From IMG/VR virus record IMGVR_UViG_2534681934_000021, positions 1-7,469 of that record: DNA of 7,469 nt; one strand, 5' to 3'. The notes under the pieces were generated by a model. It was given only the letters and a program-made list of their open reading frames with translations, was not told the DNA's origin and made no database searches. The stretch comes from a virus. Its lineage: Duplodnaviria; Heunggongvirae; Uroviricota; Caudoviricetes. This document shows positions 1-7,469 of the stretch, in pieces (positions within the stretch are counted from its first letter, which is position 1; every line of letters starts with the position of its first letter). Both the position numbers and the translations under genes were made by a program.

Positions 1-975
1 TTACACATCATTAGTACCTTCCTTATTTTTTGACTGGGACAAATTTGGGACCGATGGGTTCAGGATCGAGTCTATTTGCCGTGCGTGTTCGGTAAGGTGA
101 TTAGGTGCAAGGTGAGCATATCGACGAACCATTTCGATAGACTCCCAGCCTCCCATTTCCTGTAACACTGACAACGGGACTCCGGCTTGAACCAGCCAAC
201 TTGCCCAGGTGTGTCTCAAGTCGTGAAATCTGAAATCATCAATACCAGCCCGTCTCAGCGCCGCTTTCCAGGCTGTGTTTGCGTCATACCGCATCTTCCT
301 TACTGTTGGCGCTTTCGTTCCGTCTGGTTTGGTACAGCTTTCCTTGTACACAAATACCCAACGGTGATGATTACCGATTTGTTTTTTCAATACGCGACAT
401 GCAGTATCATTCAGCGCAACGCCAATTGCGCGGTTTGATTTACTCTCTTCCGGGTTTATCCATGCCACCCGGCGCTGCATATCTATTTGTTGCCATTCAA
501 GGTTGATGATGTTCGAGCGTCTTAAGCCTGTTGCCAGTGCAAATTCAACAACAGACTTTAATGGCTCCGGACATTCATCAATCAGCCTTTGTGCTTCATG
601 GGGCTCCAGCCAGCGGATCCGTTTATTCTTTGGTTGAGGCACTTTAATAATTGGTGCCTTATCGAGCATTTTCCATTCACGCTCTGCGGCTCTTAGCAGG
701 GCCTTTATAAATGAAAGATGCGTAGCCTTCGTTGCAACGGACGCTGGTTTTGGCGTGTATTCTGGAACAGGTTTCCCTTTTTTTCTGCATGCTTCTGCCC
801 TGAGTTTCCAGTTTTCCTCATGACGCCGGTTCGTCATTTTCTGCATTGCTGAATAAATTTTTGATTCAGTAATGTCTCTTAGTTGCATTCCTGCGAAATG
901 TTGAAGCCAGAATCCGATCTGCTTTCCATTGAGCCTGTTTCTCTGCGCGACGTTCGCGGCGGCGTGTTTGTGCAT
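1..975 (-). CDS. int: Tyrosine site-specific recombinase/integrase, 5'-truncated (core-binding and catalytic domains only); the ORF begins at an ATG in the N leader and its first ~20 codons are N DNA read in the +1 frame
   Basis: C-terminal motifs [18 protein letters not shown] and RRYAHL match the Arg/His-x-x-Arg/Tyr catalytic signature of tyrosine recombinases. There is no arm-binding N-terminal domain. The sequence upstream of ~918 is identical to the lambda N start as I recall it, so the N-terminus is a deletion fusion. The protein is not similar to lambda Int. Confidence 0.72.
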
Positions 976-979
976 CCAT
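866..979 (-). pseudogene. N: Antiterminator N remnant: the first ~20 codons match lambda N ([20 protein letters not shown]), followed by an out-of-frame tail after the deletion junction near 918
   Basis: The minus strand reads AGGAGAATCCAG ATG GAT GCA CAA ACA CGC CGC CGC GAA CGT CGC GCA GAG AAA CAG GCT CAA TGG AAA GCA, then diverges from the recalled lambda N (AANPLLVG...). The Shine-Dalgarno AGGAGA lies at 986-991. Confidence 0.8.
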
Positions 980-1136
980 CTGGATTCTCCTGTTAGTTAG
1001 CTTTGGTTGTGTGTGGGAGTCGTAGTCCTGAACGAAAACACCCCGCAATGGCACATTGGCTGCTAATCCGGATTCGCACTTCCGGCCAATGCTTCGTTTC
1101 GTATCACACACACCAAAGCCTTCTGCTTTGAATGCT

Positions 1137-1167
1137 GCCCTTCTTCAGGGCTTAATTTTTAAGAGCA
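1137..1167 (-). promoter_or_regulatory. nutL: nutL (boxB 1137-1151, boxA 1159-1167)
   Basis: The minus strand reads TGCTCTTAA...GCCCTGAAGAAGGGC, matching the lambda nutL boxB stem-loop exactly as recalled; boxA differs by one base (T for C). Confidence 0.7.
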
Positions 1168-1206
1168 TCACCTTCATGGTGGTTAGTGCGTCCTGCTGAT
1201 GTGCTT

Positions 1207-1269
1207 GGTATCACCGCTAGTGGTATTTGTGTCAACATCGCCAGAGATAATTTATCACCGCAGATGGTT
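1207..1269 (-). promoter_or_regulatory. pL promoter with operators OL1 (1209-1225), OL2 (1233-1249), OL3 (1253-1269)
   Basis: Three 17-bp operators, TATCACCGCTAGTGGTA, CAACATCGCCAGAGATA and TATCACCGCAGATGGTT, sit around -35 TTGACA (complement of 1230-1235) and -10 GATACC (complement of 1207-1212). The region is near-identical to lambda pL/OL with a few substitutions. Confidence 0.8.
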
Positions 1270-1282
1270 ATCTGTATGTTTT

Positions 1283-2158
1283 TTATATAGATTTATTTTT
1301 TGCAGGGTTGTGTGGCTTGGGAGGTGATCGAGAGATCAGAATTGCGTTGTTTAGTGAGTTGCACCTATTAATTTTAAAATAAATACAATTGCCTTTTTTT
1401 CGATCTTCCCACCAGTCAGGTGCCGGGTCTGGCTCAACATGTAAAGCATCGGCAAGTCCTGATATCAAGCTGTATGACTGAACTCCATCAATGTGCTCTG
1501 ACAGTGATGGGGTAACATTCTGTCTTAGTGGATCAAGAATAAAATCAATACCTTTAATTCTGGCGTGTTTGGCGGCAGGCACAAAGTCTGAGTCCCCAGC
1601 AACAAGGACAATTACATCAACAAGTTTTTCATAAGCTAAAGTCGTGATATCCATCCCTAGCTTGATATCAACTTGTTTTTGTTTGATGTCATAGTAAAAA
1701 TCATCATTTGTCAGTTCATCCCATTTTTTCGTTCCTTTCATCAGAGCATCAAGGGAGAATGTAGTTAGTTGCCATCGCTTATTATCAACAAGATTCCCTA
1801 ATCTTAAGGCTGTTTTTCGAGTTTTTCTTAACTCTTCATGCAGCTCCGTTCTCAGAATATATGATTTTTCGAGTTTGAAATTCTTGCGACCAGGCGTCTT
1901 ATTGCCAGGCTCAGGAAGTGGAAGGCGTGTTTGAATGTCGAGTGGTGGACAGTCATAGAAGTAAATTCTATAAAGCTCAAGCGGTTCCCTACGTTCTTGT
2001 GATTGACGTTTTCCATTAAGATGGGAAAGAACCATTGACCATATTACTTTCATTATGCATTGCGCAGTCAGTTCATGCTCGGCGAAGTGTTTACGATGCG
2101 TAGCATGAACACGCTGCATGAAAAAACCCGCATCAATTAAAATTGCTGCTTTCTTCAT
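1283..2158 (-). CDS. NYN/LabA-like (PIN-fold) nuclease-domain protein, 291 aa; a cargo gene occupying the rexA-rexB position; candidate exclusion/defence gene
   Basis: The N-terminal MKKAAILIDAGFF and C-terminal VLVAGDSDFVPAAKHARIKG motifs are typical of NYN/LabA domains, along with an internal acidic motif (VDIKLGMDI). The start ATG is at 2158. The gene lies between the cI stop (2286) and the point where lambda-like sequence resumes (~1400). The last ~38 codons read through lambda-like DNA. Confidence 0.7.
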   Translation of the reverse strand: MKKAAILIDAGFFMQRVHATHRKHFAEHELTAQCIMKVIWSMVLSHLNGKRQSQERREPLELYRIYFYDCPPLDIQTRLPLPEPGNKTPGRKNFKLEKSYILRTELHEELRKTRKTALRLGNLVDNKRWQLTTFSLDALMKGTKKWDELTNDDFYYDIKQKQVDIKLGMDITTLAYEKLVDVIVLVAGDSDFVPAAKHARIKGIDFILDPLRQNVTPSLSEHIDGVQSYSLISGLADALHVEPDPAPDWWEDRKKGNCIYFKINRCNSLNNAILISRSPPKPHNPAKNKSI

Positions 2159-4664: not shown

Positions 4665-4972
4665 AAAACATCGCCGCACAGATGGTTAACTTTGACCGTG
4701 AGCAGATGCGTCGGATCGCCAACATCGATAACCAGGACATGACGATATCGGTCTGGGTCTTTCCTGATACTGATATTTCAGATGTATCGCGTGAGTTAAT
4801 TGCGGCAATTAAACAGGGGTATCTAACAGTAAAAGCCGCCGGGGTATGGGCGGGGGGCATTGAAACACCTTCGGTGGAAACTCCATCGGAAGGCTCTAAA
4901 TTTTTTGGTTTTGATATGGATAACGAATTCATCAGTGGTTTTGATGTAGGGGCATGGGGAGTATTACTCTGA
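4661..4972 (+). pseudogene. P: P' remnant: the first ~21 codons of replication protein P fused in frame to the C-terminal ~80 codons of an unidentified tail/baseplate-module gene (deletion junction near 4725)
   Basis: MKNIAAQMVNFDREQMRRIAN matches the lambda P N-terminus, then diverges (IDNQDMTISVWVFPDTD...). The ATG overlaps the O stop, and the ORF's own stop overlaps the downstream stf start (TGATG at 4970-4974). Confidence 0.7.
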
Positions 4973-5766
4973 TGGCGAAAAATGACTTTAAAGCGTTTGC
5001 AACTGATCGAAATGCCAATGTTATGTCGCAGGAGGAATGGGAAGCGTTGCCTGCGCTTATATCCGGATTTACAGCAGGGAAAGCATCCAGTGCGCAAGTC
5101 AATAAGGTTATTCGGCAGGCCAGCTTTATTGCTGCAGCTCTGGCCCAGTTTGTAAGTGATAAAACGCAACGGGATGTGCTTGATAATGGTGATCTGCCCG
5201 GTTTTGTTGAATTGCTGGGATCGGGGTTTGCTGTTGAATACCTGAGCCGCAAGAATCCGTTTGGCGATATCAAATCGGACGGCACGGTGAAAACGGCTCT
5301 TCAAAACCTTGGTTTGGGAGAAGGTGCTCCAGCTATTGGCGTTCCGTTCTTCTGGCCGTCCGCTGCAATGCCAAATACTGTAATCGACAGCTGGTCCTGT
5401 ATGGTGTTTTTGAAGTTCAACGGCGCGAAATTCTCTGCCACTGATTATCCTGTGCTGGCGAAAGTGTTTCCTTCGCTGGTATTACCTGAAGCCCGCGGTG
5501 ATTTCATTCGTATCTGGGATGACGGGCGAGGTGCAGACGGTGGTCGCGAATTATTAAGCTGGCAGGCAGCTACAAACTTTTCTCAGTTTGCCGGGAATAT
5601 AGGCGAAGGTGCGGGACACGCAATTAACTTTCATGATGGCATCGCCGGAAATCAGCCAGGATTTTCACGATTTAATTTCACCAGTAACTCTGTGGGTGAT
5701 GGTGTGAATTTTGTTGCAGTCAGACCGCGAAATATTGCATTTAACTTTCTGGTGAGGGCTAAATAA
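4954..5766 (+). CDS. stf: Short side tail fibre protein with a receptor-binding-type C-terminus; the likely true start is ATG 4972 (MAKNDF...)
   Basis: C-terminal motifs [12 protein letters not shown]...[20 protein letters not shown]...[19 protein letters not shown]...[11 protein letters not shown] resemble the lambda Stf and P2 H / Mu S C-termini (GAPIPWP...NIAFNYIVRLA). It is followed directly by tfa. Confidence 0.75.
5297..5322. other. Candidate DNA-invertase (Pin/Gin/Cin/Hin family) crossover site inside stf
   Basis: The 26-bp sequence CTCTTCAAAACC-TT-GGTTTGGGAGAA has imperfect 12-bp inverted half-sites around a 2-bp core. It fits the AAACC-NN-GGTTT pattern of hix/gix/cix/pix sites and lies at the boundary between the constant and variable parts of the fibre. 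Confidence 0.5.
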
Positions 5767-6359
5767 TGAAACCTGTTTTTGATGAAAATGGGCTGGCTAC
5801 AGTGCCGGGCGATATGCGTTGTTTTTATTATGATGCTGAAACATCTGAGTATACGGGCTGGTCTGATGAATATATTAATACTGGCGTAAGTATGCCCGCC
5901 TGTTCCACTGGTATTGACCCTGGCGAAAACATTCCGGGAAGAGTGGCAGTATTTACAGGTAAGGGATGGAGCCATGAAGAAGACCATCGCAATGAGACTG
6001 TTTACTCAATCGAAAATGGCGCAGCTGTTACAGTGGATTATATCGGTGCCATCAAAGACGGTTATGTCACGATTTCACCGTTAACGCCATACGATAAATG
6101 GGATGGTGAGAAATGGGTGACAGACACTGAGGCACAACACAGTGCCGCAGTAGACGCGGCAGAAGCACAGCGCCAATCACTGATTGATGCAGCAATGGCT
6201 TCCATTAGTCTGATTCAGCTGAAGTTACAGGCCGGACGGAAACTGACTCAGGCAGAAACAACCCGACTTAACGCCGTGCTGGATTACATTGACGCGGTGA
6301 CGGCAACAGATACCAGCACCGCGCCGGATGTCATCTGGCCTGAACTGCCGGAGGCGTAG
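5766..6359 (+). CDS. tfa: Tail fibre assembly protein (chaperone), 197 aa
   Basis: The ATG overlaps the stf stop (TAATG). The C-terminus ...LNAVLDYIDAVTATDTSTAPDVIWPELPEA is typical of the lambda Tfa / Mu U family (VDTSTAPDIEWP). Confidence 0.8.
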   Translation: MKPVFDENGLATVPGDMRCFYYDAETSEYTGWSDEYINTGVSMPACSTGIDPGENIPGRVAVFTGKGWSHEEDHRNETVYSIENGAAVTVDYIGAIKDGYVTISPLTPYDKWDGEKWVTDTEAQHSAAVDAAEAQRQSLIDAAMASISLIQLKLQAGRKLTQAETTRLNAVLDYIDAVTATDTSTAPDVIWPELPEA

Positions 6360-6783
6360 GCCATTCAATATCTGGCGCACCGGAAGTATCGACCAGCTCC
6401 AGTGCGTCCAGATAATCCAGCCACAAATTATATTGCGTCAGTTCGTCACCTTTCAGACGACCAATAGCCGCTTTACCGGGCCATTGCTTACTGTTCATGT
6501 ATTCGTTGGCCTGGTTAATTAGTAGCTGTCTTTCTGATTCAGTAATTTCAATAAGCTCTTCATGCGTGGGTGGAGGAATATCTGCCCACGCAGGCAGCCC
6601 ATCATCTCCGGCAATACGGATTTTTCCTTGTGGCGGTTCAGCCATAAACTCACTGATAATATTTTGATTTACTTCCTTAGCGTCTGATAAATCCCATCCC
6701 TCTGATTTATATTTATCAATCATATCCACAGGGAAAAAAGCATTATGCCTTGCGCTATAAACATATTCGTCCATATAAATCAC
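6331..6783 (-). CDS. tfa: Second tail fibre assembly protein in inverted orientation (U'-like), orphaned from its fibre gene; the likely start is ATG at 6774
   Basis: The C-terminus ...NLWLDYLDALELVDTSGAPDIEWPTPPAVQAR is Tfa-family. It converges on the plus-strand tfa with a ~29-bp 3' overlap, the classic invertible-segment arrangement. Confidence 0.75.
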   Translation of the reverse strand: MIYMDEYVYSARHNAFFPVDMIDKYKSEGWDLSDAKEVNQNIISEFMAEPPQGKIRIAGDDGLPAWADIPPPTHEELIEITESERQLLINQANEYMNSKQWPGKAAIGRLKGDELTQYNLWLDYLDALELVDTSGAPDIEWPTPPAVQAR

Positions 6784-6891
6784 CCTGAATAAAATTACTC
6801 ACCAACAGCCCACCAACTGTAATTCATCGATACCGTGTGAACCGCCCCGGGTTTCCTGGAGACTAAACTCCCTGAGAAAGAGGTAAACAGG

Positions 6892-7218
6892 ATGACTAAA
6901 AATACTCGTTTTTCCCCCGAAGTCCGTCAGCGGGCGATTCGTATGGTTCTGGAAAGTCAGGATGAATATGACTCACAGTGGGCGGCAATTTGTTCCATTG
7001 CCCCAAAGATTGGCTGTACGCCGGAGACTCTGCGTGTCTGGGTTCGCCAGCATGAGCGGGATACCGGGGGCGGTGATGGTGGGCTCACCAGCGCTGAACG
7101 TCAGCGTCTGAAAGAGCTGGAACGTGAAAATCGTGAACTGCGCCGCAGTAACGATATCCTTCGCCAGGCTTCCGCTTATTTTGCGAAGGCGGAGTTCGAC
7201 CGCCTCTGGAAAAAATGA
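6892..7218 (+). CDS. IS3-family transposase OrfA (helix-turn-helix / leucine-zipper part)
   Basis: [22 protein letters not shown]...[36 protein letters not shown]. It ends at an A6 run followed by TGA (7210-7218). Confidence 0.85.
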
Positions 7219-7469
7219 TGCCACTGCTGGATAAGCTGCGTGAGCAGTACGGGGTCGGACCGGTATGCAGCGAACTGCATATTGCCCCGTCAACGTATTA
7301 CCATTGTCAGCAACAGCGACATCATCCGGATAAACGCAGTGCCCGTGCGCAGCACGACGACTGGCTGAAGAGAGAGATACAGCGCGTATACGATGAAAAT
7401 CATCAGGTGTACGGTGTGCGTAAAGTCTGGCGTCAGTTGTTACGGGAAGGAATCAGGGTGGCCAGATGT
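7215..7469 (+). CDS. IS3-family transposase OrfB, N-terminal part (partial; -1 frame relative to orfA, 3' end beyond the window)
   Basis: The -1 frame is open from 7215 to the window end: [85 protein letters not shown], typical of IS3 OrfB before the DDE domain. Confidence 0.75.

Follow-up and report, generated by a model that had tools for sequence, protein, structure and literature searches.

The N-to-integrase junction of cryptic prophage Sp1/CP-933H in Escherichia coli O157:H7, very likely the scar of an illegitimate deletion

The locus and the position of the junction

How did the leader and first codons of a lambda-type N gene come to run directly into the interior of a foreign integrase gene, and what can the joined pieces still do? 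The question arises on the minus strand near the left end of a 7,469-bp stretch of viral DNA, which was analyzed as a whole and is called the window here. The window was 99.8-99.9% identical to E. coli O157:H7 chromosomes, in which it lies directly to the right of proB-proA-thrW. Site, gene remnants, and sequence all matched Sp1/CP-933H (99.6-99.9%; proA-thrW on the left and, in Sakai, Sp2 on the right), and the Sakai annotation describes the same DNA as "prophage Sp1, lambda-like phage" (300042-310627). On the strength of these comparisons, the window is regarded as established to be the cryptic prophage Sp1 (Sakai) or CP-933H (EDL933) of E. coli O157:H7. ARAGORN placed the end of the tRNA-Thr(CGT) gene thrW ~15 bp to the left of the window, where a look for a tRNA or attachment site had been suggested, and a 46-bp att core was found inside thrW. 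Sakai Sp1 shares with the window the thrW site, the coordinates of the int' pseudogene (975 nt), and a 246-nt "early gene regulator" open reading frame. The window differs from the Sakai and related Sp1 copies by three SNPs in 1-1391, two in pL/OL. The closest genome for window positions 1-1391 was 644-PT8 (100% identity), which has lost the entire immunity and replication region. The features around the junction are as follows.

1..918, minus strand: int', codons 83-387 plus stop of an SfIV/SfI-type, P22-family, thrW-specific tyrosine integrase
1..975, minus strand: apparent 324-aa open reading frame, starting at ATG 975, with 19 residues from the N +1 frame followed by Int 83-387
866..979, minus strand: fusion open reading frame in the N frame, 37 aa, consisting of 20 N residues and 17 out-of-frame int-derived residues, then stop
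919..919, minus strand: deletion junction, a single G common to both parental sequences (three-way alignment of lambda, window, and SfIV)
919..979, minus strand: N', lambda-type N codons 1-20 (arginine-rich boxB-binding motif) plus one base
~987-991, minus strand: N Shine-Dalgarno sequence AGGAG (alignment with lambda, ev099, and SfI)
980..1206, minus strand: N leader, transcribed from pL (same alignment)
~1137-1151, minus strand: boxB GCCCTGAAGAAGGGC of nutL, with boxA TGCTCTTAA (same alignment)
1207..1280, minus strand: pL/OL, -35 TTGACA, 17-nt spacer, -10 GATACC
1207 and 1238: SNPs of the window's sub-lineage in pL/OL, in the -10 hexamer and OL2

The breakpoint had been predicted at about 918, and base-level alignment placed it at 918/919. 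In the ungapped three-way alignment, identity to lambda ended at 919, and identity to SfIV began at 919. At this point lambda reads ...CAATGGAAAGCAG|CAAATCC, the window ...CAATGGAAAGCAG|ATCGGATTCTGG, and SfIV ...GACAAAAGCCGG|ATCGGATTCTGG. All N-side phage matches began at 919, and the int-side matches ended between 919 and 925. The BLAST alignment of the integrase reached 925 with a 1-nt gap because an imperfect AAAGC match, one base out of register, lies just upstream of 919. This AAAGC was considered as the crossover site and rejected, as the window has the AAAGCAG of lambda and not the AAAGCCGG of SfIV; thus, the crossover is assigned to the single G. A chance resemblance was ruled out, with E = 0 for all alignments and 100% conservation of the junction among the matches listed. 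Window positions 866-979 are very likely what an illegitimate (non-homologous) deletion left behind within Sp1/CP-933H, a cryptic lambdoid prophage at thrW.

A 126-bp probe across the junction detected the complete junction in 214 of 5,426 complete E. coli genomes. Probe identity was 100% among the matches listed, and the named genomes were O157:H7. Some 1,565 further genomes contained either the N half only (annotated as "antitermination protein N") or the integrase half only ("tyrosine-type recombinase/integrase"). Judged by this distribution, the junction is the derived state, as the halves occur separately elsewhere, and it can be taken as a lineage marker for O157:H7.

The same data bear on whether an insertion sequence made the deletion, either next to an IS629/IS1203 copy or by excision of an IS with loss of flanking DNA. 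Rearrangements by these elements are frequent in Sp1, with an IS at ~1391 in strains 155 and 644-PT8 and another at 6837 in the window. However, neither an IS nor an IS end or remnant was present at 919 in the window or in the retrieved O157 loci, the junction did not vary among the matches listed from the 214 genomes that hold it, and the two ends meet at one shared base, as in ordinary illegitimate recombination. With no trace of an IS at 919, an IS-mediated origin of the junction was rejected and is considered very improbable.

The two remnants and the reading frames across the junction

The integrase part is not derived from lambda Int, as had been predicted; its closest relatives are of the SfIV/SfI type. 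Window positions 1-919 were 99.4% identical to the SfIV integrase gene, and DNA identity to SfI, SfV, and SfII was 98.5-98.8%; E. coli phage phi458 also matched. The first complete integrase-derived codon is I83 of a 387-aa protein, and the 305 retained residues (83-387) equal those of SfIV Int. Synonymous and nonsynonymous differences numbered 4:0 in the comparison with SfIV and 8:1 in the comparison with SfI, counts that are too few for selection to be tested from them. The lack of any protein decay since truncation would fit a recent event in a young clone and is silent on selection.

Pfam recognized only the catalytic domain (Phage_integrase, PF00589, E = 2e-47, profile positions 1-171 of 172) at residues 121-292 of the open reading frame, corresponding to 184-355 of the full protein. 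In an alignment of homologues, the family-invariant RHDLRH and Y349 columns were kept in the window's row, and the missing 82 residues were among the most conserved parts of the family. The best 120 homologues were almost all 380-388 aa long and aligned to ~94% of the open reading frame, omitting its first 19 residues, which were matched by none of these 120 proteins. Natural integrases of ~320 aa beginning with MHKHAAAN would have spoken against a truncation, but the best homologues are ~387 aa long.

A sequence search of solved structures matched only the catalytic domain of Sf-type Int (HP1 Int and XerC/D) and gave no N-terminal boundary, and Pfam returned for the N terminus only a sub-threshold match to DUF6538 at residues 3-44. 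An AlphaFold model of a 387-aa homologue, of moderate confidence, was used for this reason (mean pLDDT 68; 73-89 over the first ~160 residues except for 61-66 at 41-60). In the model, three strands at 4-25 and a helix at 31-51 form what appears to be the usual arm-binding type of domain, and the predicted core-binding helices span 59-69, 77-90, 100-108, 113-129, and 143-165. In this model, a protein cut after residue 82 has no arm-binding domain, no first core-binding helix, and only half of the second one (77-90). Thus, the original prediction that the arm-binding domain was lost was confirmed, but the loss is larger than it stated, as about one and a half core-binding helices are gone too; with residues 1-82 missing, the window has neither an N-terminal arm-binding domain nor a complete core-binding domain. 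In Sakai, window positions 1-975 are annotated as "intD, pseudogene" (ECs_0271), RefSeq likewise lists a pseudogene, and the PGAP call is "incomplete; missing N-terminus". The int' sequence is a pseudogene fragment.

On the other side of the junction, a base-by-base alignment showed window positions 979-919 to be identical to codons 1-20 plus one base of the lambda and ev099 N genes, exactly as expected if the first ~20 N codons were retained. The phage matches to the right of 919 were 99.1% identical for ev099, 96.6% for lambda, and 96.8% for SfI. The Pfam family N36 (N arginine-rich peptide) was found in the open reading frame with E = 3e-9 at profile positions 1-19, and the N-terminal arginine-rich motif of lambda N (residues ~1-22) is present, residues 1-20 being those of lambda N. 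Lambda N binds NusA through residues ~34-47 and RNA polymerase through residues ~73-107. A full-length N of this kind (~107 aa, with NusA- and RNA polymerase-binding regions) is absent, the N frame ending at 37 aa. A longer, GTG-started version of this frame (866-1111) is annotated in Sakai as ECs_0272, "phage early gene regulator". The reference annotations of lambda N (NC_001416; retrieved locus L004, 8238-8639), ev099 N, and ECs_0272 all use an upstream start codon, which results in 133 aa for lambda N and 81 aa for ECs_0272. In the alignments the accepted start of the 107-aa N protein (MDAQTRR) lies 78 nt downstream of the annotated start, and coordinates taken from those annotations are therefore misleading.

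The integrase frame is +1 relative to N, and the 324-aa open reading frame begins at the second ATG of ATGGATG (975); its translation agreed with the original prediction in both respects. This frame owes its existence solely to the chance that the +1 frame at the N start has no stop codon and includes an ATG. The 324-aa "integrase open reading frame" is a by-product of the fusion and not a gene. The distance from the N Shine-Dalgarno sequence is 7 nt for the N ATG and 11 nt for the second, out-of-frame ATG, and some translation of Int' from the latter is conceivable.

Could the fusion have been kept because it is useful, N' acting as a decoy against incoming lambda-type phages or Int' acting at the thrW att site? 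Both the arginine-rich motif and the ribosome site of N have been preserved, Int' 83-387 has no amino acid change relative to SfIV Int, the early genes of Sp1 are SOS-inducible in Sakai, and the junction is conserved in its 214 genomes. However, O157:H7 is a young clone, so that conservation and absence of decay are no evidence of selection. Moreover, the Int' frame opens only with an out-of-frame ATG that is there by chance, and its core-binding domain is incomplete; in the lysogen cI represses pL, which mutation probably weakens further in the window's sub-lineage; and other sub-lineages continue to delete neighboring parts of Sp1. We regard retention for use as extremely unlikely. The same very low probability attaches to its two specific forms, in which SOS-derepressed N' would be a dominant-negative nut-site decoy against phages with lambda-type N, or arm-less Int' would block Sf-type integration at thrW. 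If N' were such a decoy, it would represent a domesticated anti-antitermination or exclusion function.

The parent phage and the deleted interval

As predicted, the genes that normally lie between int and N, from xis to ral, are missing; comparison with SfI, ev099, lambda, and the thrW prophage of O55:H7 showed the absence of xis, the 3' part of N, and everything between them. The two breakpoints are separated by 5,695 bp in SfI, where, besides several small genes and the remainder of N, the interval contains xis, exo, bet, gam, kil, cIII, and ral. In ev099 and lambda, ~6.4-6.5 kb separate the N breakpoint from the int start. By analogy with these relatives, ~5.7-6.8 kb would have been deleted between int codon 82 and N codon 21. 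The DNA lost would have comprised xis, the recombination genes, genes of the kil/cIII/ral type, the 3' part of N, and the terminator downstream of N. Of the claim that one large internal deletion made the junction, the deletion itself stands; the single step, like the size, is tentative and judged from the relatives, and several successive deletions may have been involved.

Both the shared and the differing features of known phages point to a mosaic parent. The serotype-converting Shigella flexneri phages SfI, SfIV, SfII, and SfV are intact, with a 387-aa Int, xis, recombination genes, and a complete N, all of which Sp1 lacks; they share with Sp1 the integrase and the 46-bp attP core in thrW. 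The Sf phages carry gtr O-antigen genes adjoining attP, which are absent from Sp1. Phages ev099 and lambda are 96-99% identical to Sp1 in pL, OL, nutL, the N start, the NYN gene (ev099), cI, cro, cII, and O; unlike Sp1, they have a lambda-type Int/attP and a complete N to xis region. SfI unites the two halves, having the same int (98.8%) and thrW attP core together with a lambda-type N-pL-(rexAB)-cI-cro-cII-O-P region (~97%); it has rexAB where Sp1 has the NYN gene.

The attachment sites gave a consistent picture. The 46-bp SfI attP core occurred in exactly two copies in Sakai, one inside thrW (attL), ~15 bp from the int stop codon, and the other at the Sp1/Sp2 border (attR). The cognate xis is absent. 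The right end of Sp1 consists of 172 bp of Sf-type attP arm plus the core, and the AraC/IS-remnant region beside the right-end att was 99.5% identical to the region beside the ev099 attP. A single mosaic parent with an internal deletion is well supported by these comparisons, because SfI pairs the same int with a lambda-type region and because Sf-type attP arms are found at both ends. The original prediction of a mosaic parent thus has a precedent in SfI and agrees with the presence of ev099-like DNA between the Sf-type arms of the two Sp1 ends. Such a parent would have combined an Sf-type (P22-family) int-xis-attP module for thrW with an early region of the ev099/lambda type (N, pL, NYN gene, lambda cI, cro, cII, O, and P). 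Sp1 would then descend from a single integration of this ev099-like, lambda-immunity phage, followed by internal deletions.

Alternatively, two prophages in tandem at thrW might have recombined, an Sf-like remnant giving int' and a lambda/ev099-like phage giving N'-pL-cI and the genes beyond. Tandem occupation of thrW does occur (the P4-like Sp2 lies in the attR copy), the site is a busy one with another phage present in O55:H7, and the ev099 int is of the lambda type, not the Sf type. On the other hand, only two att cores flank Sp1, and they carry complementary Sf-type attP arms; a phage with lambda int is not expected to integrate at thrW; SfI demonstrates that an Sf-type int and a lambda-type early region are viable in one phage; and the order of int, N, and pL, all leftward, is that of a single prophage. 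Recombination between tandem prophages is accordingly judged very improbable, and a single mosaic parent is the preferred reading.

None of the genomes retrieved contained a direct undeleted ancestor, with Sf-type int, the NYN gene, and lambda cI together in an intact prophage. The thrW prophage of strain CB9615, from the O55:H7 progenitor lineage, was considered for this role and rejected. It is a nearly complete lambdoid prophage that shows the normal gene order at thrW, but its int has no DNA match to window positions 1-918 and its immunity differs, so that it is another phage and not the ancestor. Occupancy of thrW therefore differs between O55:H7 and O157:H7. The CB9615 prophage (locus L007, 17545-40001) has a divergent P22-family int, a full N, and a different immunity; tRNA-Asn and tRNA-Gly genes follow Q, and a PerC-family regulator is present.

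Leftward transcription, consequences, and further rearrangements

A lambda-type leader is complete upstream of N, where the pL hexamers, the operators OL1-3, and nutL boxA and boxB were all recognizable; a scan of the window also detected a boxB hairpin on the opposite strand. In pL/OL, the window departs at two positions from lambda, ev099, SfI, Sakai, and strain 155: a T-to-C change turns the -10 hexamer GATACT into GATACC, and GGCGATG replaces GGCGGTG in OL2. A consensus promoter scan found pL in Sakai (TTGACA-17-GATACT) and none at the same place in the window. The window's pL/OL allele was present exactly in 10 O157 genomes, including 644-PT8 and 180-PT54. Judged from the hexamer, the -10 change probably weakens pL in the window's sub-lineage, and together the two SNPs may silence the leftward promoter of the remnant.

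Between pL and the start of the window, a scan predicted no terminator-like site on the minus strand, and the terminator downstream of N in lambda-type phages presumably falls in the interval deleted here. Transcripts from pL should therefore read through; when derepressed, they would pass N' and int' and continue antisense towards thrW. The original prediction that pL transcription would enter the integrase fragment is thus likely to hold for Sakai-type alleles, but in the window's sub-lineage read-through into int' is probably weak because of the mutated -10 hexamer. The 37-aa N' peptide would keep the boxB-binding motif without the NusA- and polymerase-binding regions, and since these regions are missing, antitermination is not expected of it.

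Several of these consequences agree with the known status of Sp1. In the survey by Asadulghani et al. 2009 (PMC2669165), the Sp1 integrase is defective and the excisionase absent; the table entry reads repressor +, Cro +, integration "D", excision "-", and replication "D", with the rest absent. Circularization, replication, and packaging of Sakai Sp1 were not found experimentally, and its residual early genes were induced by mitomycin C (PMC2669165). With Xis missing and Int lacking its 82 N-terminal residues, Sp1 cannot excise, which explains why it does not circularize despite its mitomycin C-responsive early genes. Other deletion-locked cryptic lambdoid prophages, such as Sp3, Sp11, and Sp12 of Sakai with disrupted int, are likewise non-excisable remnants, and loss of int or xis in such prophages is ascribed to deletion, frameshift, or IS insertion (PMC2669165). 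Sp1 differs from these cases in that its breakpoint creates an open-frame N'::int' fusion. The junction is a pseudogenizing deletion in a well-known, annotated, and heavily degraded prophage, and its features are already tabulated in the literature. A literature search by locus tags returned a CGH listing and an expression table only, with nothing on the fusion itself. The junction provides a base-resolved example of lambdoid prophage fixation in the chromosome of a pathogen: one illegitimate deletion would have removed excision (xis and the Int N terminus) together with antitermination (N), leaving a repressor-controlled promoter in place. By comparison with SfI, ev099, and lambda, host-toxic early-left genes would have been removed as well.

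Further rearrangements were observed in the remainder of the window, which contains the following two features.

1283-2158, minus strand: NYN-domain gene, 291 aa, predicted RNase fold
6837-7469: left 633 bp of an IS3-family IS629/IS1203 element, orfA at 6892-7218, inserted in a yfdL-like tail-fiber gene

The NYN gene stands in place of the rexA-rexB genes of lambda and SfI and is also found in phages ev099 and 2B8 and in many E. coli prophages. A role in exclusion or defense, with expression in the lysogen, is possible. The gene is uninterrupted in the window, whereas Sakai has a shortened copy and strain 155 one with an IS insertion. A recurrent breakpoint lies at window positions ~1389-1392 (retrieved loci L002, 9475-9630; L001, 8392; L006, the Sakai locus, ~5465; L008, 9203). 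A stretch of 157 bp that is present in ev099 and many non-O157 E. coli is missing from the window at ~1391, with TTG microhomology. This loss removes the NYN stop codon and the following hairpin terminator, and because of it the 3' end of the window's NYN gene reads into DNA upstream of pL. In strain 155, IS1203/IS629 is inserted at ~1391 and window positions 1392-1805 are lost; Sakai has no IS there and lacks ~1392-1810; in 644-PT8 an inverted IS abuts 1391. The position has the appearance of a hotspot at which IS629 insertion and excision occur along with deletion of adjacent DNA. The window's own arrangement at ~1391 occurred in none of the 5,426 complete genomes, nor did its combination with the IS at 6837 (0/5,426). 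The IS629/IS1203 copy at 6837 sets the window's Sp1 sub-lineage apart and is 100% identical to the IS in the NYN gene of strain 155.

Three 1-bp homopolymer deletions, at window positions 2923, 3282, and 4223, distinguish the window from Sakai and strain 155. The first (T6 instead of T7) splits the lambda-type cI by frameshift into two open reading frames (2825-2998 and 2286-2879), the second alters the C terminus of Cro, and the third introduces another frameshift into O, a gene that in Sakai is a pseudogene already. The pattern is typical of long-read errors, although it could be real decay.

A second large deletion lies at window positions ~4724-4954. Homology to ev099, lambda, and SfI ends at 4724, 64 nt into gene P, and tail-fiber genes begin at 4954; ren, the nin region, Q, and the lysis, head, and tail genes are missing, as is the remainder of P. 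The cassette of tail-fiber and tail-fiber assembly genes that follows (4954-6836; 8630-11447 of the Sakai locus, L006) includes two convergent tfa genes, and a pinE invertase gene lies just to the right of the window. The orientation of the tail-fiber segment is reversed in 644-PT8, as expected for a Pin-invertible host-range segment. In Sakai, the right end of Sp1 has the P4-like prophage Sp2 (L006, 14600-22001) integrated in tandem in its thrW-derived att core, and Sp2 carries genes for which the strain 155 annotation is "ABC-three component system", a candidate defense system.
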